Assembly: GCA_041917215.1 (NCBI GenBank)
Contig: JAYRYC010000002.1
Coordinates: 337,334 to 401,333, forward strand
Length of the DNA stretch: 64,000 nucleotides
DNA from: Tagaea sp.
GTDB lineage: Bacteria; Pseudomonadota; Alphaproteobacteria; CACIAM-22H2
Direction: 5' to 3'
Shown in pieces: positions 9,098 through 24,931 of the stretch. Position 1 is the stretch's first letter; each line of letters opens with the position of its first letter. The position numbers and the translations under genes are program-made. A model generated the notes under the pieces. That model made no database searches and was not told where the DNA came from. It saw only the letters and a list, made by a program, of their open reading frames with translations.

Positions 9098-9789
9098 GCG
9101 CAAGAACGGACCTCGAGAACGCATTAGGCCATCGCTTCGCCGATCCCGATTTGCTGACCGCGGCCTTGGCGCATTCATCGCTCGGAAGGCGCGGCGACAA
9201 GAAGCGCAGCGGCGTGGGGTTCGAGCGGCTCGAATTCCTCGGCGATCGCGTCGTCGGCTTGGTCGTCGCCGATCTTCTGGAAAAACGCTATGGCGAGGAG
9301 AACGAAGGCGACCTCGCCAAACGCCACGCGCAGCTCGTGCGCCGCGAAACGCTGGCGGCGCTGGCCAAGGAATTGGATATCGGCGCCGCCCTTGAATTGT
9401 CGAACTCGGAGGAGCAGGGCGGCGGGCGCGAAGCGGCCGGCGTGCTGGCCGACGCGTTCGAGGCCTGCGTGGGCGCCGTCTATCGCGACGGCGGTATGGC
9501 GCCCGCGCAAGCCTTGGTCGCCAAGCTGTTCGCGCCCTTGCTCGCCAAAGCGGGTGCCCCGCCGCGCGAGCCGAAGACCGCCTTGCAGGAATGGTCGCAA
9601 GGGCGCGGCCTCAAACTGCCGATCTACGAAGTGCTGACCCAAACTGGCGTCGCGCATGCACCGCATTTCACCGTACGCGTGACGGTCGAAAGCCACGCGC
9701 CCGAAACGGGCGACGGCCCCAACAAACGCGAAGCCGAACGCGACGCCGCCGCAAAACTGCTGGCACGCCTGGAAGGATCGAAGATATGA
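9094..9789 (+). CDS. rnc: ribonuclease III
   Basis: ORF 9025..9789. ERLEFLGDRV (RNase III signature) and a C-terminal dsRBD. Start uncertain; TTG at 9094 gives a TTGA overlap with the lepB stop. Confidence 0.8.
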   Translation: MSARTDLENALGHRFADPDLLTAALAHSSLGRRGDKKRSGVGFERLEFLGDRVVGLVVADLLEKRYGEENEGDLAKRHAQLVRRETLAALAKELDIGAALELSNSEEQGGGREAAGVLADAFEACVGAVYRDGGMAPAQALVAKLFAPLLAKAGAPPREPKTALQEWSQGRGLKLPIYEVLTQTGVAHAPHFTVRVTVESHAPETGDGPNKREAERDAAAKLLARLEGSKI

Positions 9790-10700
9790 GCCGCTGCGGT
9801 TTCGTCGCCTTGCTGGGCGTGCCCAACGCGGGCAAGTCGACGCTGGTCAATCGCCTGGTGGGTGCCAAGGTCGCGATCGTCTCGCCCAAAGTGCAGACGA
9901 CGCGCACGCGCGTGACCGGCATTCTGGTCGAGAACGAAACGCAGGCGATCTTCGTCGATCTGCCCGGCGTGTTCGCGCCCAAGCGCCGCTTGGATCGCGC
10001 GATGGTCGATGCCGCGTGGCGCGGCGTCGAGGAAGCCGACGCCGTGCTGCTGGTCGTCGATGCGCCGCGCGCGTTGAAGCGCGGCGACGGCGACGAGGAG
10101 GAGAAGATCGTCCTCGACGGTCTCGCCAAGCGCGGCATGAAGGCGGATCTCGCGATCAACAAAATCGACTTGATCGCACCACATGAACTACTCGCTTTGG
10201 CCAAGCGCTATTCGGAGACGGGCCATATCCGCGACGTGTTCATGGTCTCGGCGCAGACCGGCAATGGCTGCGACGTGCTGAAAGCGAAACTCCTCGCGAA
10301 GCTGCCCGAAGGCCCGTTCCATTACCCCGAGGACGAGATCTCCGATCTGCCCGCGCGCTTGCTGGCGGCGGAGGTGACGCGCGAGCAGGTGTTCCGCAAG
10401 TTGCACAAGGAGTTGCCGTATTCCTCGGCGGTCGAGACGACCAAGTTCGAGGAACGCGAGGACGGTTCCGCGCGCATCGAGCAGACGATCCACGTGGCGC
10501 GCGAAGGCCAGCGCAAGATCGTGATCGGCGCCAAGGGCGCCATGCTCAAGACGATCGGGCAGGGGGCCCGCTTCGAACTCGCCAAGCTGCTCGACCGGCA
10601 AGTGCATCTGTTCCTGCACGTGAAGGTCGATCCCAAATGGGACGAGAAGCGCGATTTCTTCCAGGAATGGGGCCTGGAGTTCAATCCCGAGAAGGGATGA
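9786..10700 (+). CDS. era: GTPase Era
   Basis: Start MSRCGFVALLGVPNAGKSTLVN (index 65 of ORF 9591..10700), ATGA overlap with the rnc stop. G1-G4 motifs plus a KH domain. Confidence 0.9.
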   Translation: MSRCGFVALLGVPNAGKSTLVNRLVGAKVAIVSPKVQTTRTRVTGILVENETQAIFVDLPGVFAPKRRLDRAMVDAAWRGVEEADAVLLVVDAPRALKRGDGDEEEKIVLDGLAKRGMKADLAINKIDLIAPHELLALAKRYSETGHIRDVFMVSAQTGNGCDVLKAKLLAKLPEGPFHYPEDEISDLPARLLAAEVTREQVFRKLHKELPYSSAVETTKFEEREDGSARIEQTIHVAREGQRKIVIGAKGAMLKTIGQGARFELAKLLDRQVHLFLHVKVDPKWDEKRDFFQEWGLEFNPEKG

Positions 10701-15426: not shown

Positions 15427-16743
15427 TTAGCGCCGCTTCTTCGCCTTCGGCTTGCCGAACACGCGCGCGAACAGCGTGTCGACGTGTTTGGTGTGGTAGC
15501 CGAGATCGAACATCGCGTCGATCTGCTTGGCGTTCATCTTCTTGGCGACGATCGGATCGGCTTTCAGCCGTTCCTGGAACGAGCCGCCCGCCGACCACGC
15601 CGCCATCGCGTTCGATTGCACGATGCGATAGGCGTCTTCGCGGCTCACGCCGGCTTGCGTCAGCGCCAACAGCACGCGCTGCGAATGGACGAGACCGCCC
15701 AGCGCGTCCAAGTTGGCCTTCACGCGATCCTTGTAGATCACCATCTTCTCGATCATGCCGGCGAGGCGATGGAGCGCGAAATCCAGCGTGATCGTCGCGT
15801 CGGGCCCGAACACGCGCTCGACCGCCGAGTGCGAAATATCGCGCTCGTGCCATAGCGCCACATTCTCCAACGCCGGCGTCACCGACGCGCGCACGATGCG
15901 CGCGAGACCGGTGAGGTTCTCCGACAGCACCGGGTTGCGCTTGTGCGGCATCGCCGACGAGCCCTTTTGGCCGGGGCTGAAATATTCCTCGGCCTCGCGC
16001 ATTTCGGTGCGTTGAAGATGGCGGACCTCGATCGCGAAACGCTCGATCGACGAGGCGATGACGCCCAGCGTGGCGAAATACATCGCGTGCCGGTCGCGCG
16101 GGATCACCTGGGTCGAGATCGTTTCGGGCACCAGGCCCATCTTCTTCGCGACATGCGCTTCGACGCGCGGATCGATATTGGCGAAAGTACCGACCGCACC
16201 CGAAATCGCGCAGGTCGCGATTTCCGCGCGCGCGGCTTCCAGGCGTTTGCGGTTGCGCAGGAACTCGGCATAGAAGCCGGTGAATTTCAGGCCGAAGGTC
16301 GTCGGCTCCGCATGGATGCCGTGGCTGCGGCCGATCGTCGGCAGATACTTCGTTTCGTGCGCGCGCTTCTTCAGCGCCGCGAGAACGCGGTCGAGCCCTT
16401 CGAGCAACAGGTCGCTCGCGCGCGCCAGCTGCACCGACAAGGTCGTGTCGAGCACGTCGGAGCTGGTCATGCCCTGGTGCACGAAGCGCGCGTCGGGGCC
16501 GACATATTCGGCGAGGTTGGTGAGGAACGCGATGACGTCGTGCTTGGTCTCGCGCTCGATCGCGTCGATGCGCGCGATCTCCCACTTGCCCTTCTTCCAG
16601 ATCGTCTGGGCGGCCTTCTTGGGGATCACGCCCAACGCGGCTTGCGCGTCGCAAGCATGGGCTTCGATCTCGAACCAAATACGGAATTTGCTTTCGGGCT
16701 CCCAGATCGCAGTCATCTGGGGGCGGCTATAGCGCGGGATCAT
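15427..16743 (-). CDS. purB: adenylosuccinate lyase
   Basis: 438 aa. MIPRYSRPQM...GSSAMPHKRNP (fumarate-lyase signature) and overall PurB-type length. Confidence 0.9.
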   Translation of the reverse strand: MIPRYSRPQMTAIWEPESKFRIWFEIEAHACDAQAALGVIPKKAAQTIWKKGKWEIARIDAIERETKHDVIAFLTNLAEYVGPDARFVHQGMTSSDVLDTTLSVQLARASDLLLEGLDRVLAALKKRAHETKYLPTIGRSHGIHAEPTTFGLKFTGFYAEFLRNRKRLEAARAEIATCAISGAVGTFANIDPRVEAHVAKKMGLVPETISTQVIPRDRHAMYFATLGVIASSIERFAIEVRHLQRTEMREAEEYFSPGQKGSSAMPHKRNPVLSENLTGLARIVRASVTPALENVALWHERDISHSAVERVFGPDATITLDFALHRLAGMIEKMVIYKDRVKANLDALGGLVHSQRVLLALTQAGVSREDAYRIVQSNAMAAWSAGGSFQERLKADPIVAKKMNAKQIDAMFDLGYHTKHVDTLFARVFGKPKAKKRR

Positions 16744-16869
16744 TTAGATGCACTCCTATTTAATCGGTCACACATAGCTGATCGGGTCCGATTTGGGCAA
16801 TTATGATCATTTCAGCAGTTGACAGGACAAAGCCGCATCACAACAATTGCAGGAGGCGGGTTCAAAGAA

Positions 16870-17664
16870 ATGAATCCATTGTGGATACAGATTGCAGAGT
16901 TAGGACAGGCAGCTAACCAAGCACTCTTGAAATGTTGTGTGTGGCTGGCACGGTGGCCTTTTGGTTTAGGCTATTTTTTTCAGTTTATTTTTTTAATTTT
17001 TTTTATTTTATATAAGATGCTCAGATGGGTTGGGCGTCGCGTTTTGATTTTCATTGCTTTGATCAGTGCTTTGTTCATCGCGACACAGCAAGAAGTGGTT
17101 AAGGAATACATCGACCGCTGGGCGCGCGGGTGTCGCATAGCGATTTCGATGGTCGAGCCAGCGCCCGACGAGGACAGGTTTTCTATTTTTCTATCAACAA
17201 GCGGCGTAATGCCGAATGAGATCAGTATAGTCGCTGCGATCAGCCTAAAGGACGAAAGTAAGGCTGATAGCGTGCCACGGATCAAATCGATCCGTACTAA
17301 AATTCCGACGGCTGGCGACAATCGTTTGGTTACCCGTGAATCGTTGTTGGTAGACAAAACGGAGGAGGAGCGGAAATCTGGTGTGTCCCAGCTTTCAATC
17401 AGCATACCCGGTCCGCTTCGCGGCGCTAATCATGTTGCGGAAGTAATGCTGACAAGAGCCGTTACTGAGGCGGATCGGAAGTTAGGTTGGCGTGTGTTTG
17501 GACTGGTTGCGATCGATGGTGGCACGCCCCCGGAGAAGGTTTGCAGTGTTTCCAGCCCGACTTATTTCGAAAATAAACTTGGCGCTGATGGCGCAAGGAT
17601 ATTTATCGCTTTAGTGCTTCTGCTTTTCCTTGGCTCCTTAGTTAGTCTGATAAAGAAGGAGTGA
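16870..17664 (+). CDS. hypothetical membrane protein (2 N-terminal TM + C-terminal TM), low-GC cassette gene 1
   Basis: ORF 16819..17664. TM segments WLARWPFGLGYFFQFIFLIFFILY, VLIFIALISALFIATQ and C-terminal IFIALVLLLFLGSLVSLI. Start ambiguous (16819, 16870 or 17017). No recognisable motif. Local GC is far below the flanks. Confidence 0.45.
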   Translation: MNPLWIQIAELGQAANQALLKCCVWLARWPFGLGYFFQFIFLIFFILYKMLRWVGRRVLIFIALISALFIATQQEVVKEYIDRWARGCRIAISMVEPAPDEDRFSIFLSTSGVMPNEISIVAAISLKDESKADSVPRIKSIRTKIPTAGDNRLVTRESLLVDKTEEERKSGVSQLSISIPGPLRGANHVAEVMLTRAVTEADRKLGWRVFGLVAIDGGTPPEKVCSVSSPTYFENKLGADGARIFIALVLLLFLGSLVSLIKKE

Positions 17665-18611
17665 AAATGCCAAATCTGTTCGTTGCGTTGGGCTTGGCGA
17701 TTTTCATCGCTTGCGGATACCCTGTATCCGAAGTCCTCGCTCAAGACGTGAAGTTCTCATTTAGAGCTACATATCTTGATGCGGGGAATACGCTATTGCT
17801 ACAGGGAGCCCCTGTCACAATTGAGAGTGAAAAGGCGACAGAAGTTTGGTGCGAGGCAAGAAGCGCCGAGGATGGGTCGATTGAATGCGCGGTCAGGAGC
17901 TGTGGTAGCGATTTGGATTCCAACAGAAGAGTTCATTACATCGTTTTTTCGGCCGCAGAATCTCGACGGCCCTCTCAACGGAAATTTCAAATTATAGCGC
18001 GTTTCCAGAATGGCCGATGTGTTGTTGAGCCGCAGACAGTACTGGCTGGTCCGACTGTGATTGAGTATCGAGATCGGATTCAGATCGCTTCGGCTGCGAA
18101 GTCTGATTTCGAGGCCATTTTCGGAGCGGCTACCGGCCTGTCCGCATTGCGTGTGGGCGGGGCCCGACATCAGATTTTTAGCAATAGCGTTGATGAGGCA
18201 TTGAAGCTTTTAGCTGACCCTATAGCGATCGATCGATTCACGGCTGTTCGAGAACTCGTTCAGCGCCAAGCCGCAGAAGCCGCGATGGAAAATCCCAGTT
18301 CCGCGAAGGCGGTCCTACTTAAGGCTCAGCTTGAGACATTGGCCGTCGCCGGCCTTTTAAGAGCGCAAGCTTTAGACGATCTCGAATTGAAAAGGGATTT
18401 GGTCGATATAGCGTTGGTCGGAGGATTGCCCGCTCTCGGTCGGCGCTTGCAAGAGACGCAAACAGGAAAATTGGACTCCGAACTCTCAGCTCAGATTTTT
18501 GACAATCTAGTTCTGCAATCGCAGCGTGGTCAATTTGGCCTTAAAGAATTTAGGAATTTAGAAAATCTCAATCGCGCTCTAATCATGATTCCTCGCGCGC
18601 AAGGAGGTTAA
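17661..18611 (+). CDS. hypothetical secreted/lipoprotein, low-GC cassette gene 2
   Basis: 316 aa. Signal peptide with Cys (MKMPNLFVALGLAIFIACG). Cys-containing N-terminal region, helical C-terminal half. ATGA overlap with gene 1. Confidence 0.5.
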   Translation: MKMPNLFVALGLAIFIACGYPVSEVLAQDVKFSFRATYLDAGNTLLLQGAPVTIESEKATEVWCEARSAEDGSIECAVRSCGSDLDSNRRVHYIVFSAAESRRPSQRKFQIIARFQNGRCVVEPQTVLAGPTVIEYRDRIQIASAAKSDFEAIFGAATGLSALRVGGARHQIFSNSVDEALKLLADPIAIDRFTAVRELVQRQAAEAAMENPSSAKAVLLKAQLETLAVAGLLRAQALDDLELKRDLVDIALVGGLPALGRRLQETQTGKLDSELSAQIFDNLVLQSQRGQFGLKEFRNLENLNRALIMIPRAQGG

Positions 18612-18617
18612 TTTGGG

Positions 18618-19253
18618 TCAAAGTCCGGCGAGTGCGGTGCCGATCATGCTGTCGCGGCCGACCAGGGCGGCGAGGCGGTCTTCGCTCCATCCCTCGGTCC
18701 CGGCCGGTCGCATCGGCACGACCAGATAGCGCATATCGGCCGTGGAATCGACGACGCGGATTTCCACGCTTTCGGGCAGGAAAGTCCCGAATTCCGCCAA
18801 GACCTTGCGCGGTTCTTTGACCGTGCGCGCGCGATAGGCGCTGGATTTGTACCAGGCGGGCGGCACGCCGAGAATCGCCTTGGGATAGCAGGAGCACAGC
18901 GTGCACACGACGACGTGATGGCGTTCGGGCGTGTTTTCGAGCGCCACGACGGTCGCCGAGTTGGATGTATCGACCCCCATCTCGTCGGCGGCGGCTTTCG
19001 CATCCTTCATCAGCCGCGCCTTGAACGCCGGATCGACCCAGGCGCGGGCGACGATCTTCGCCCCCATCGCCGGGCTGCGGCTGTCCATCAATTCGATCTG
19101 CTTGCGGATATCCTCCGCCGTCAGCACGCCCTTGGCGATCAGCAATTCGCGCACGGCGCGTTCCAGGCGCGCATATTCCGGGCGCGGCTCGGTCGCGCCG
19201 ACGGGGGCGTGATCGTCGTGGGTGTGCAGATGGTCGTGATGATCGCCGCTCAT
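18618..19253 (-). CDS. nitrile hydratase alpha subunit-like (Co-type motif) with His-rich N-terminus
   Basis: VVCTLCSCYP is the Co-type NHase / thiocyanate-hydrolase metal-binding motif. N-terminal MSGDHHDHLHTHDDH. Start at Met index 6, ATGA overlap with the upstream gene. Confidence 0.75.
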   Translation of the reverse strand: MSGDHHDHLHTHDDHAPVGATEPRPEYARLERAVRELLIAKGVLTAEDIRKQIELMDSRSPAMGAKIVARAWVDPAFKARLMKDAKAAADEMGVDTSNSATVVALENTPERHHVVVCTLCSCYPKAILGVPPAWYKSSAYRARTVKEPRKVLAEFGTFLPESVEIRVVDSTADMRYLVVPMRPAGTEGWSEDRLAALVGRDSMIGTALAGL

Positions 19254-19543
19254 GGCGCACGCTCCAGCCAATTCTCGTAAAGATCGGCGGTCAGGGTTTC
19301 GTTATGCGCGTTCGTGCCGGGAAACAGATCGGCCCGGTCGAACACGACCATATAGAGGGCGCGCTTGGGCGCGTCCTTGCGGCCGATGGCGAGGAACTCG
19401 GGATCGCCGAATTCGCCGATCAGCGTTTCGATCCGCCCCGTTTTGCCGCGCACGAAATGCGGCGTGCGGATATGGACCTTCACGCCCTTCGCCTCGGGCC
19501 AATCGTTGCGCACGGTGACGCGTGTACCCGGGGCGAAACTCAT
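19250..19543 (-). CDS. nitrile hydratase beta subunit, C-terminal half (separate ORF)
   Basis: MSFAPGTRVTVRNDWPEAKGVKVHIRTPHFVRGKTGRIE matches the NHase beta C-terminal barrel. Starts at the internal Met of ORF 19250..19648, with ATGA overlap to the N-half gene. Confidence 0.65.
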   Translation of the reverse strand: MSFAPGTRVTVRNDWPEAKGVKVHIRTPHFVRGKTGRIETLIGEFGDPEFLAIGRKDAPKRALYMVVFDRADLFPGTNAHNETLTADLYENWLERAP

Positions 19544-19863
19544 GCTTCCTCGCCGTCCTCTTCCTTGAGGTCGGCGAGTTTGAGGACGAGTTCCTCCTCG
19601 CCGATCACGTCCTTGGCGACCATGATTTCGGCGACCGCGTGGATCCATTTTTCGTAATAGAGCGCGCGGTCGTATTCGTCCGCCGGCATCGCCTCGATCG
19701 AATTGCGCATTTCGTCGACGCGCATCAGCGCGCGCGAGGGATGGGACAGAAGACTGACCAGCGCGTCGACGCGTTTGTCGAATTCCGACAATTCGTGTTC
19801 CGCGCGGTCGATCGGTTGCGAGGCGAACGGCTCGACGCCGCCCATGTCGTGATGGGATCTCAT
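19540..19863 (-). CDS. nitrile hydratase beta subunit, N-terminal half (separate ORF)
   Basis: MRSHHDMGGVEPF...YYEKWIHAV matches the NHase beta N-terminus (MNGxHDxGG). 107 aa. Confidence 0.65.
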   Translation of the reverse strand: MRSHHDMGGVEPFASQPIDRAEHELSEFDKRVDALVSLLSHPSRALMRVDEMRNSIEAMPADEYDRALYYEKWIHAVAEIMVAKDVIGEEELVLKLADLKEEDGEEA

Positions 19864-23020: not shown

Positions 23021-23107
23021 GCCCGCTTGATGGAATTGGTAGACATACAAGACTTAAAATCTTGAGCCCTTCCGGGCGTGCCGGTTCGAGTCCGGCAGCG
23101 GGCACCA
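23021..23107 (+). tRNA. tRNA-Leu: tRNA-Leu (anticodon UAA), CCA encoded
   Basis: Hand-folded. 7-bp acceptor GCCCGCT/AGCGGGC, D-loop with GG, anticodon stem CAAGA/TCTTG with loop CTTAAAA (TAA), long variable arm GCCC-TTCC-GGGC, T-arm GCCGG-TTCGAGT-CCGGC, discriminator A, CCA. Confidence 0.85.
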
Positions 23108-23141
23108 CGCGAAAACGATACGCGAGAGGGAGGATGCGCCG

Positions 23142-23738
23142 ATGGACGATCAGGCCGCCAAATTTCGTGACGCGCTTCGGTTCATCGAGAATATCGACGC
23201 GCTGAAGAACACCTACCGGAAAAATCTGATTTTGAACCGCGCGCGGGAGGAAAGCACCGCGGAACATAGTTTCTCGCTGGCGATGGCGGTGCTTTGCTTC
23301 GGCGCTTTCAGCGACCGGAAGATCGATCTGATGAAGACGGTCAAGATGGCGCTGTTCCACGACCTCGCCGAAGGCTTGACCGGCGACACGTTCCATTACG
23401 ACAAAAACAAGGCCGTGCAGGAAGCGTCGGAGCGCGAAGCGCTCGAAACGATCCTGGTGCCCATCGCCGGCACCGCGCTGCACGCGGAAATTCTGGCGCT
23501 TTGGGAGGAATTCGAAAACGGCGACAGCCCCGAGGCGTTGTTTTTGCGCGGCCTCGATCGGATGCTGCCGATCTTCCACAACTACAAGACCGACGGGCAT
23601 ACCTGGCTGAAGCACGGCATCACGAAGGATATGGCGCTCAAAAAGAATGCCCATATCGAAGACGGGTCGAAGCTGATGTGGGAGGCAACAAAGGCGATGC
23701 TCGACGAAGCGCAGTCGAAAGGCTGGCTCGCCGCGTAA
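23142..23738 (+). CDS. HD-domain phosphohydrolase (YfbR-like 5'-deoxynucleotidase)
   Basis: AEHSFSLAM...ALFHDLAEGLTGD HD motif, about 198 aa. Confidence 0.7.
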   Translation: MDDQAAKFRDALRFIENIDALKNTYRKNLILNRAREESTAEHSFSLAMAVLCFGAFSDRKIDLMKTVKMALFHDLAEGLTGDTFHYDKNKAVQEASEREALETILVPIAGTALHAEILALWEEFENGDSPEALFLRGLDRMLPIFHNYKTDGHTWLKHGITKDMALKKNAHIEDGSKLMWEATKAMLDEAQSKGWLAA

Positions 23739-23931
23739 CGTGGCGGGGCCGTCCATTGGAAAATGTCGGCGCCGGGCAACGCAATTCGGTCCGGGCTATC
23801 AAGTTGGCTGAGTGCCTGTGCCGAAGGCCGGCCAACTCGAAGAATGTCATATAAAAAAATTTAATCCGCTTGGTTGGGCTTGTGGGACCTCTCCTTCGGT
23901 TGATAATCTCCGAATTCGGGGTGGGGAGGGG

Positions 23932-24729
23932 ATGATGTTTTTACGTCGATGCGTTGCTGTCATCGTTTTGATGCTGTTGGGGGCCTGTGGGCCAGAAGGC
24001 ATAAATGGCTCGGCCCCGCTACCGTTGGTGGGCAGCAAGCATTTCGATGCGATCAAGGTCGGTCGCATCGTCGTTCCGCTGCCCGAGGGCGAGTGGATCG
24101 TGATGGCCTCGGGTACTCGCAAGACGAACCCGGTGGATGGTTCGATGGCGACTGCGAACGACAAGGTCCTCTTGATCAGAAGGGCGACCAGTTCCAGTGC
24201 CTTGTTTGCGGGTCTCATCACGATTGAGACCAACCACGACACCCAGAATATTCGGTGGTTGCGCGACAGCGCCTGTTTCCAAGAAGATTGGATGAGCGTA
24301 TCGAACTATTTCGGTTCGGAATCCGAACAGCAATGCCTGCGAATGGCGGTTTGGAATACGAACTTCCAGTACAGTGCGAACTGGCATCCGGTCGATCGCC
24401 AAGCGATCGAATGGGCCGCCGCAAATGGGATTTCCCTCGCGCCGACGACGTTTCTCGGCGCCCGCTATCGCGTCGTTAGAAGGTCCGACTATCTCAGCGT
24501 CATCTATTACCGGACCAACGACGATCTGGGTGTCTTGCTCGGAAACTGGTGGCATCCCGTGGAACGCCAGAAGCGTCCGCCATTCGAAAAGGCTTATCAG
24601 GAATTTTTGAGCTGGGCGAAGGCCTGGGAGGCGCGCGTGATCGCCGGTGTCGAAGGTCGGCTCGCCCTCCCGTCTTCGTCGCTGCCCGTCGTTTCGTCGC
24701 AGAACACGCGCCCCGCGCCGGCTCAGTAG
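23932..24729 (+). CDS. hypothetical lipoprotein
   Basis: Start MMFLRRCVAVIVLMLLGACG (lipobox LLGAC; index 40 of ORF 23812..24729). No known motif. Lower-GC upstream region. Confidence 0.45.
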   Translation: MMFLRRCVAVIVLMLLGACGPEGINGSAPLPLVGSKHFDAIKVGRIVVPLPEGEWIVMASGTRKTNPVDGSMATANDKVLLIRRATSSSALFAGLITIETNHDTQNIRWLRDSACFQEDWMSVSNYFGSESEQQCLRMAVWNTNFQYSANWHPVDRQAIEWAAANGISLAPTTFLGARYRVVRRSDYLSVIYYRTNDDLGVLLGNWWHPVERQKRPPFEKAYQEFLSWAKAWEARVIAGVEGRLALPSSSLPVVSSQNTRPAPAQ

Positions 24730-24793
24730 GCGCGGACCGCTTGGCTTCTCGATTTTGGCAAATTGAGCGCCGAAAGAATTGAAGGAACTCCTG

Positions 24794-24817
24794 TGCGGGT
24801 TGCATTCGAACCCCGCA
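24794..24817 (+). terminator. hairpin downstream of lipoprotein gene
   Basis: TGCGGG-12 nt-CCCGCA stem-loop followed by ATCTTT. Confidence 0.3.
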
Positions 24818-24931
24818 ATCTTTCCGCTTCGCGGTTTAATTCGACGGCGACATCTGCGCCCGATCCGAAAATCGGCGCGGGTGCGTATGCGCCTCGGATG
24901 GACTCGGGGGCCGATGGCATAAAAGGGCGCG

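Follow-up and report, generated by a model that had tools for sequence, protein, structure and literature searches.

How did two genes without recognisable relatives come to lie between the adenylosuccinate lyase gene purB and a nitrile hydratase (NHase) operon in Tagaea sp.? The segment belongs to a 64,000-nt stretch of contig JAYRYC010000002.1, and this whole stretch is called the window below. An earlier note on this DNA had taken the segment for a low-GC (guanine plus cytosine) cassette of two coupled genes, inserted at this place. Through comparison with related genomes, we found that the site exists in at least three very divergent cassette versions and in an empty state within the Tagaea-related clade of Rhodospirillaceae, and that the two-gene unit is dispensable. 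We consider it probable that positions 16,744 to 18,625 of the window are one allele of a small, horizontally exchanged and multi-allelic islet without a mobility gene, situated at the junction between the RadC–NHase operon and purB. With three divergent alleles plus a null allele at one site, the view of a one-off insertion could not be kept, and the genomic context changes the reading of these relative-less genes from an apparent single event to an old exchanged polymorphism (three alleles, five empty sites).

Empty and occupied sites in related genomes

The segment between 16,744 and 18,617 has a GC content of 49.1%, compared with 64.2% for the whole window. Measured over 300 nt, the GC fraction is 0.41–0.54 across about 16,650–18,750 and 0.62–0.72 on either side; measured over 1 kb, the islet is the deepest dip of the window (0.495 at 17,001–18,000, where 0.63–0.68 is typical). 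The GC at third codon positions (GC3) is 0.50 in the first open reading frame (ORF1) and 0.48 in the second (ORF2), and 0.82–0.88 in purB, NHase alpha, RadC and MAP. The sharp drop against the flanks that the earlier note reported is borne out by both measures. Its placing of the borders needed correction: position 16,743, given there as the end of purB, is in fact the start of this minus-strand gene, and on the other side homology breaks not at the NHase alpha stop codon but at 18,625/18,626, inside the last NHase alpha codons.

Five related genomes carry an empty site. The closest species-representative genome, a metagenome-assembled genome of Tagaea sp. (L004, purB 84% identical), has the order MAP, RadC, NHase beta and NHase alpha, followed after 18 nt by the purB ATG. 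Two closer relatives, L086 and L087, were recovered with NHase alpha as query (purB 96–97%, NHase alpha 95–96% identical) and have spacers of 14 and 13 nt; two others, L088 and L089 (NHase alpha 69% identical), are also empty. The range of spacer lengths, 13–18 nt, comes from the three of the five empty genomes that were read at the junction. The empty spacers CGAAGGAAGTTCG and CGTAAGGACGATCG resemble one another, and so do the NHase alpha C-termini (...TALADTPA* and ...TALADTPKH*). Because of this likeness, the empty state, in which NHase alpha is directly followed by purB, is clearly indicated to be the ancestral one and not a deletion scar.

Two genomes carry other versions of the cassette. 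The order in L084, a sister species, is purB (minus strand), a 217-aa ORF, a gene for the protein P0004, NHase alpha (minus strand), NHase beta and RadC. In L085, a more distant relative, the gene for the protein P0005 is convergent on NHase alpha at a distance of 11 nt. The locus of the window itself was also found, intact, on three metagenomic contigs with 99.96–100% DNA identity. Composition is low in every version: the L084 cassette has a GC fraction of 0.48 and a GC3 of 0.43–0.45 against a flank GC3 of 0.80–0.88, and the L085 variant has 0.55 in a background of 0.68, the hosts of these two cassettes lying at 0.65–0.68.

The contrast between the cassette and its flanks carries the main finding. 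Between the window and L084, protein identity is 95.5% for purB, 96.7% for NHase alpha, 93.8% and 95.0% for the two halves of NHase beta and 91.6% for RadC, whereas it is 27.8% for ORF1 and 30.7% for ORF2. Flank DNA identity stays at 93–98% right up to the junction and then collapses, and blastn detected no nucleotide similarity between the window and L084 across the cassette. By the Nei–Gojobori method, the flanking genes of these two genomes gave a synonymous divergence (dS) of 0.17–0.43 and a nonsynonymous divergence (dN) of 0.016–0.052; the cassette genes gave a third-position identity of 22–30%, a proportion of synonymous differences (pS) of 0.81–0.85, which is saturated, and a dN of 0.80–0.85. 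Since the synonymous sites are saturated, which protein selection cannot cause, while the flank dS is 0.17–0.43, the cassette alleles must, to judge from these divergences, long predate the separation of their hosts and must owe their presence to horizontal arrival or replacement. The window, L084, L086 and L087 are about equidistant from one another (88–93% flank DNA identity).

Horizontal acquisition, as proposed earlier, is thus supported by the five empty relatives and by saturated synonymous sites beside flanks of such low dS. The earlier note had held that homologues of both genes, conserved at this locus in close relatives and of native GC, would speak against a foreign origin. Homologues of both were indeed found at the locus in the sister species, but they are low in GC and only about 30% identical, and the reading of foreign origin is therefore strengthened rather than refuted.

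The two genes and their predicted products

Two long plus-strand ORFs occupy the segment in the ORF list, ORF1 from 16,819 or 16,870 to 17,664 and ORF2 from 17,661 or 17,667 to 18,611. The longest open frame, of 321 codons, exceeds that of all 500 dinucleotide shuffles (mean 131, maximum 281). Both ORFs exist as described before and are without a recognisable motif, with no match in Pfam, NCBIfam or PADLOC.

The start of ORF1 was read differently. When ORF1 is read as 264 aa, its alignment with the 217-aa homologue in L084 begins only at residue 56, which argues for a conserved protein that would start at Met50 (ATG 17,017) and have 215 aa. The open frame upstream of Met50 (70 codons) is weakly unusual, being matched by 4–9% of shuffles, and a start at 16,870 seems the less probable one. 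The T-rich run noticed at 16,975–17,015 is present as claimed, but the two N-terminal transmembrane (TM) helices deduced for ORF1 are doubtful and probably wrong, since the Phe-rich "first helix" is the translated T-run and lies upstream of the conserved Met50. The T-rich leader region showed no stable RNA fold (z = 0.30) and no match in Rfam, and a structured RNA, attenuator or riboswitch was dropped as a candidate for this region (z-scores of 0.30 and 0.55, no Rfam match).

From its basic N-terminus (MLRWVGRR), the ORF1 protein passes through a TM helix into a soluble domain, which is about 165 aa long and contains two Cys, and it closes with a second TM helix and a short basic tail. It shares 27.8% identity over 212 residues with the L084 protein (tblastn E = 4e-16), and the motif ATQQE just after the TM helix, C39 and C176 are invariant between the two. 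The basic C-terminal tail is KKE in the window and RRGEKT in L084, so that both homologues have a positive-inside pattern at both ends. Basic flanks of TM helices point to the cytoplasmic side, and from these features we infer that ORF1 would be anchored in the inner membrane, its two ends lying on the cytoplasmic side and its domain of about 165 aa, with a disulfide bond, in the periplasm. An AF2 model made without alignment (pLDDT 49) is confident for the terminal helices only.

ORF2 begins with a signal peptide, whose hydrophobic region ends in a conserved Cys16. Aligned to its relatives, a domain of about 100 aa holds four conserved Cys (C62, C74, C79 and C118), and the C-terminal half keeps the motifs AVLLKAQLET, GG(L/I)PA and G(Q/K)FGxx(E/Q)FxxLE. 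The AF2 model without alignment (pLDDT 52) has a beta-rich N-terminal domain and a helical C-terminal half. We compared the end of the hydrophobic region of the signal peptide with the lipobox pattern [LVI][ASTVI][GAS]C: the window has F-I-A-C16 and L084 has I-Y-L-C16, with a non-canonical Leu at position -1, and there is an alternative signal peptidase I site (VLA|QD). F-I-A-C is acceptable under the looser PROSITE lipoprotein rule. ORF2 may accordingly be lipid-anchored through the conserved Cys16; it appears to be Sec-exported and translationally coupled to ORF1, and to contain two disulfides. The envelope location proposed earlier for both products is supported by the TM helices, the signal peptide and the conserved Cys, all of them sequence features, and ORF1 and ORF2 probably act together in the periplasm. 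The idea that they are paralogues was dropped (hhalign probability 0.1%).

The two genes are tightly coupled. The junction in the window reads AAGGAG-TGA-AA-ATG, or GTGA if the GTG at 17,661 is the start; the L084 homologues overlap by ATGA. Thus the tight coupling claimed earlier stands and is also kept in L084, where homologues of both genes are adjacent, but the ATGA overlap itself is not found in the window.

Searches for relatives gave little. Both window proteins had no match in Pfam, NCBIfam or PADLOC, and the PHROGs output was limited to two matches at E values of 0.23 and 0.34; the L084 and L085 homologues had no match in Pfam or PADLOC either. Among the 5,027 PADLOC models, none matched at E ≤ 1 for five proteins from the three alleles. 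Sequences in PDB, searched with the single proteins and with the family profiles, gave nothing below E = 0.27, tblastn of both proteins against the PLSDB plasmids and INPHARED phages gave no match, and scans of IMG/VR with both family alignments gave none. Fold searches with the low-confidence AF2 models (pLDDT 52 and 49) were uninformative and gave no match.

A word-indexed search of 5.8 billion clusters returned self-matches only and missed real homologues of about 30% identity. An exhaustive phmmer search of 1.84 billion cluster representatives revealed an ORF2 family of three members including ORF2, all adjoining NHase alpha: P0004 (315 aa, 33% identity, E = 5.4e-33) and P0005, a fragment (32% identity, E = 1.5e-10). 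The 5' end of L085 extends the P0005 frame upstream with the same Cys pattern (GSLECAVVSCE, NGTCV). On this sequence evidence, ORF1 and ORF2 are two protein families without described relatives, real but very rare.

Borders, neighbouring genes and rival explanations

Compared with the empty sites of L086 and L087 (94–98% DNA identity), homology breaks between 18,626 and 18,625 and resumes exactly at the purB ATG (16,743). About 65 nt upstream of purB, L084 retains CCCAAACACT, which agrees at 10 of 10 positions with the native 3' end of NHase alpha in L086 and therefore indicates a true insertion within the NHase alpha 3' end. As the homology breaks inside the last NHase alpha codons, each cassette gives NHase alpha a new C-terminus (Table 1 for the window). 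In L084 the enzyme ends in ...TALAMKPLIQPTTSLR* (L084 2505–2551) and overlaps the 3' end of the P0004 gene by 30 nt.

The imperfect direct repeat ATTTGGG(T)CAA that was noticed near the two ends does exist. As a target-site repeat it fails: a shared 7-mer arises in 29% of shuffled end regions of 100 nt and in 6% of those of 40 nt (P = 0.06–0.29), and the repeat is not reproduced in L084. A target-site duplication was rejected on these grounds, being neither significant nor conserved. Terminal inverted repeats of the insertion sequence (IS) or miniature inverted-repeat transposable element (MITE) type were also sought, and none was found. No attC-like hairpin was found at either end of the islet, and the 6 nt between the stops of ORF2 and NHase alpha leave no room for one. 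The claim that no integrase is present agrees with our result: no integrase or transposase was found among the neighbours (LysR, purB, NHase, RadC and MAP) and none up to 26.8 kb. No tRNA gene lies at the islet, the nearest being at 23,021. In L084, about 45 extra nt between the retained CCCAAACACT and purB (L084 800–880) contain the palindrome GGATAT-TGAGCG-ATATCC, which folds no better than shuffled sequence; it might serve as an operator, or be what is left of a cassette end.

The cassette genes read away from purB (divergent) and toward NHase alpha (convergent). The control region between purB and ORF1 holds a sigma-70-like site on the plus strand (TTGACA at 16,819–16,824, a 17-nt spacer and AACAAT at 16,842–16,847; 10 of 12 consensus matches), the number of such sites being no higher than in shuffles. 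On the minus strand there is a -10-like CATAAT at 16,805–16,800, for which the best -35 is TTGTCC at a 19-nt spacer, and CATAAT could serve purB as a weak -10. At the empty sites purB starts 13–18 nt downstream of NHase alpha and was presumably once co-transcribed with it; in the window it lies 1.9 kb from the NHase operon, across genes that read in the opposite direction. No terminator-like site was found on the minus strand between NHase alpha and purB, and the sole promoter-like match on that strand is inside ORF2 (18,533–18,504). Expression of purB might then come from the left end of the islet, in the CATAAT region, or from read-through of the NHase operon, and such read-through would run antisense across the whole cassette.

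Table 1. Position, strand and basis of the features of the islet and its two flanking genes (window coordinates)
Feature	Positions	Strand	Basis or remark
purB (adenylosuccinate lyase), flank	15,427–16,743	-	Pfam Lyase_1 and ADSL_C
Inserted low-GC islet	16,744–18,625	+	1,882 bp, ~49% GC; takes the place of the native NHase alpha–purB spacer and the last few NHase alpha codons
Divergent control region between purB and ORF1	16,744–16,869		holds promoter-like sites
Left copy of imperfect direct repeat, ATTTGGGCAA	16,791–16,800	+	reverse complement GCCCAAA matches the native NHase alpha 3' end at the L086 empty site
T-rich run	16,975–17,015	+	upstream of conserved start Met50; probably 5' leader or promoter-proximal AT tract, not a coding TM helix
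ORF1, conserved core, 215 aa	17,017–17,664	+	ORF list, hydropathy, Cys positions, L084 alignment; gene callers begin at 16,870 or 16,819
Shine-Dalgarno AAGGAG for ORF2	17,656–17,661	+	read from the sequence; 5 nt before ATG 17,667; overlaps the end of ORF1 (stop TGA 17,662–17,664)
ORF2, 314 aa	17,667–18,611	+	ORF list, hydropathy, exhaustive search, alignment, AF2 secondary structure
Right copy of imperfect direct repeat, ATTTGGGTCAA	18,611–18,621	+	covers the stop codons of ORF2 and of the altered NHase alpha
New last codons and stop of NHase alpha	18,618–18,625	-	supplied by the islet; ...TALAGL* in the window, ...TALADTPA* or ...TALADTPKH* at empty sites
NHase alpha (Co-type, VCTLCSC motif), flank outside the islet	18,618–19,253	-	Pfam NHase_alpha, 7.9e-83

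Beyond NHase alpha lie a split NHase beta and then RadC, with a LysR-type regulator past purB on the other side and MAP also nearby. The alpha subunit of the NHase (window 18,618–19,863, minus strand; L004 8734–9970) is of the Co type (VCTLCSC), and its beta subunit is encoded by two ORFs, NHase_beta_N (about 101 aa) and NHase_beta_C (about 97 aa). We take this split-beta form to give three subunits, the arrangement known from toyocamycin NHase and thiocyanate hydrolase. Only the Tagaea-like clade showed the NHase operon at the place between RadC and purB. At many other alphaproteobacterial loci the RadC match stops some tens of bases to about 1 kb before purB with no NHase between them, for example in L073 (RadC 9245–9931, purB at 10,001), and the operon looks like an older insertion at the same RadC–purB junction. 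A second indel relative to L087 was found at 23,114–24,862 (about 1.75 kb, GC fraction 0.58–0.59), directly 3' of tRNA-Leu(taa) (23,021–23,107); it carries an HD-domain gene (HD_3/YfbR-like, 23,142–23,738) and a family-less 305-aa ORF (23,812–24,729), and no integrase was seen there. In L001 (JGI 3300043545 contig), which is one of the three metagenomic copies and matches the window at 99.957% identity, NHase alpha (2348–2982) appears as two called ORFs of 130 and 81 aa, either through a frameshift or through an assembly error.

If the islet is exchanged as we propose, homologous recombination between the conserved flanks would be the most likely route and other members of the genus the donors, and a site-specific mechanism acting in trans would be a possible alternative. 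The latter, a mobile cassette with its recombinase encoded elsewhere, its target at the NHase alpha 3' end and ATTTGGG/CCCAAAT as the target-site duplication, would account for the breaks in the window and L084, which fall within 1–2 nt of the same NHase alpha position and at the purB ATG, and for the location of every known family member at this single site. CCCAAAT is present at both ends of the islet in the window, and GCCCAAACACT at the L086 empty site and the CCCAAACACT kept in L084 look like displaced native sequence. We nevertheless rate it as rather improbable, since the 7-mer is at chance level (6–29% of shuffles) and absent from L084, no terminal inverted repeats, attC-like hairpin, integrase or transposase are nearby, and L085 has an intact native-like NHase alpha C-terminus and hence a different junction; moreover, the target is a spacer of 13–18 nt between two selected genes, where all insertions that are tolerated would seem to share one site. 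An old, vertically inherited pair with very fast evolution in place and precise loss in several lineages would fit the fact that the sister species, and probably the more distant relative, has homologues of both genes at this position, as well as the absence of mobility genes. It is very unlikely all the same: a cassette third-position identity of 22–30% stands against a dS of 0.17–0.43 in the adjacent genes, neutral DNA should stay about 70–80% identical where blastn finds nothing, the empty sites share a short spacer and the ADTP... C-terminus and hence are ancestral, and GC3 is not shifted toward the host value in any allele. Rapid divergence of the cassette in situ was rejected by the synonymous saturation. 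That the ORFs are chance frames or decaying remnants in AT-rich junk DNA, as the missing family, structure and annotation, the low-confidence AF2 models and the AT-rich region could suggest, is the least credible explanation of all. The longest open frame is above all shuffles, ORF2 has a Shine-Dalgarno sequence and the two genes are tightly coupled, full-length homologues of about 30% identity (E = 5e-33) share the architecture, conserved Cys and motifs, the dN of about 0.8 is below the saturated synonymous divergence, and intact identical copies occur in three metagenomes.

For the functions that the earlier note had suggested (a toxin/immunity or surface-exclusion pair, or a phage-defence or abortive-infection module), PADLOC, PHROGs and the fold searches gave no lead. 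As to function, we tentatively propose from the population pattern that the pair could provide allele-specific envelope exclusion, directed at phage or at the entry of foreign DNA, or immunity to a toxin acting in the periplasm. An exclusion or immunity role is favoured because the pair is dispensable, faces the periplasm and occurs in deeply divergent alleles plus a null allele; phages or competitors might keep these alleles by frequency-dependent selection, as has been argued for replacement genomic islands (PMC4033161). It is possible, but to be held with similar reserve, that the locus represents an undescribed allele-specific exclusion or immunity pair, swapped at a recombinase-free and possibly targeted hotspot at the NHase alpha 3' end. 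The main functional rival makes ORF2 a Sec-exported toxin and ORF1 its cognate membrane-anchored immunity protein. Toxin genes commonly precede their immunity genes, and polymorphic toxin loci show strong allelic divergence. The extreme divergence of the alleles with a null allele would agree with such loci, as would the coupling of one membrane and one exported protein, paired in L084 too, and the predicted exposure of both to the periplasm with conserved disulfides. We regard this rival as unlikely: no toxin, immunity, lysis or export domain or neighbour (type I, II or VI secretion systems or contact-dependent inhibition) was found, no allele has a Pfam or NCBIfam domain, no export or lysis genes are adjacent, ORF2 is without a strongly hydrophobic hairpin or catalytic motif, and the membrane-first order reverses the common one, although the order is not decisive.

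Several points weigh against the exchanged islet and the role we propose for it. The locus is not in a defence island and its neighbours are housekeeping genes; the domain, defence, PDB, plasmid, phage and viral-contig searches were all negative. The Leu at lipobox position -1 in L084 makes the lipoprotein status of ORF2 uncertain. The word-indexed search gave only self-matches for ORF1, and as the same tool missed even the L084 homologue, a wider family may exist. We found no rise of flank divergence toward the borders, sliding identity being 93–98% up to the junction, but background divergence is already 7–12% and only 0.65–1.5 kb of flank could be compared, and an import from an about equally distant relative (88–93%) would leave no mosaic. 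The known sample is small: three alleles of the cassette and five empty sites, most of which come from metagenomic contigs of short length.

Likeness to known systems

The closest known concept for the islet is the replacement flexible genomic island, exemplified by O-antigen, flagellar glycosylation and S-layer loci (Lopez-Perez, Martin-Cuadrado and Rodriguez-Valera 2014, PMC4033161). Such islands are recognised by the same location with different sequence of a similar kind, presence in all strains, synonymous peaks in the bordering genes and a link to exposed structures, and it has been proposed that homologous recombination between conserved flanks exchanges them while phages drive the selection (PMC4033161). 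The islet shares the position (the window, L084 and L085 at the NHase alpha 3' end; the window and L084 between NHase alpha and purB), the lack of nucleotide similarity with 28–31% protein identity and the same two-protein architecture, borders without integrase or IS hallmarks, and products that appear to be envelope-related. It differs in being empty in five of eight related backgrounds, so that it is not present in all strains, and in its tiny size (two genes, 1.9 kb), with periplasmic and membrane proteins instead of glycan-synthesis clusters. A synonymous-substitution peak was not seen in its bordering genes, over 0.65–1.5 kb of flank and against a background divergence of 7–12%, and its hosts are about 90–93% identical and not clonal frames of one species.

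Exclusion pairs resemble the islet in architecture only. Known examples are F TraS/TraT, for entry or surface exclusion by conjugative plasmids, and T5 Llp, phi80/N15 Cor, TP-J34 Ltp and T4 Imm/Sp, envelope proteins for superinfection exclusion by prophages. They likewise combine a small inner-membrane protein with an exported protein or lipoprotein and are often AT-rich, allele-specific, dispensable and without detectable homologues. However, they are carried on the plasmid or phage that they protect, whereas the islet is at a housekeeping junction without mobile-element genes; no similarity to them was seen in sequences or profiles, and both islet proteins vary while TraT is conserved. With the phage spanins Rz/Rz1, which pair an inner-membrane protein with an outer-membrane lipoprotein, the islet shares an inner-membrane protein beside a possible lipoprotein and little sequence conservation. 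It differs from them in ORF2, which is about five times the size of an o-spanin, in the second, C-terminal TM helix of ORF1, and in the absence of lysis genes, prophage or PHROGs match at the islet.

Defence islands of the kind covered by PADLOC have in common with the islet its presence or absence at a fixed hotspot, low GC and compact operon, but none of its alleles matches a PADLOC system or has a recognisable enzymatic or nucleotide-binding domain or motif, and no defence genes are nearby. Integron cassettes are likewise short, lack a recombinase of their own, contain many relative-less genes and exported or membrane products, and have a defined insertion point; the islet differs in having no attC, integron integrase or attI, and in its two genes with their own promoter-like region and in the wrong orientation. 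It also differs from an integrase-mediated island or a prophage remnant, as it has no integrase, transposase, tRNA target or significant att repeats.

These comparisons concern three known members of the ORF2 family, all from a single Rhodospirillaceae clade that has been little sampled, and bacterial genomes commonly contain small low-GC islets with unassigned envelope genes. If the proposed function is true, the islet would be a minimal "replacement" island, made of two genes, protein-based and with a null allele. Its specificity determinants could then be mapped by allele swaps between sister strains, which is hard to do with the large glycan loci of the known replacement islands.

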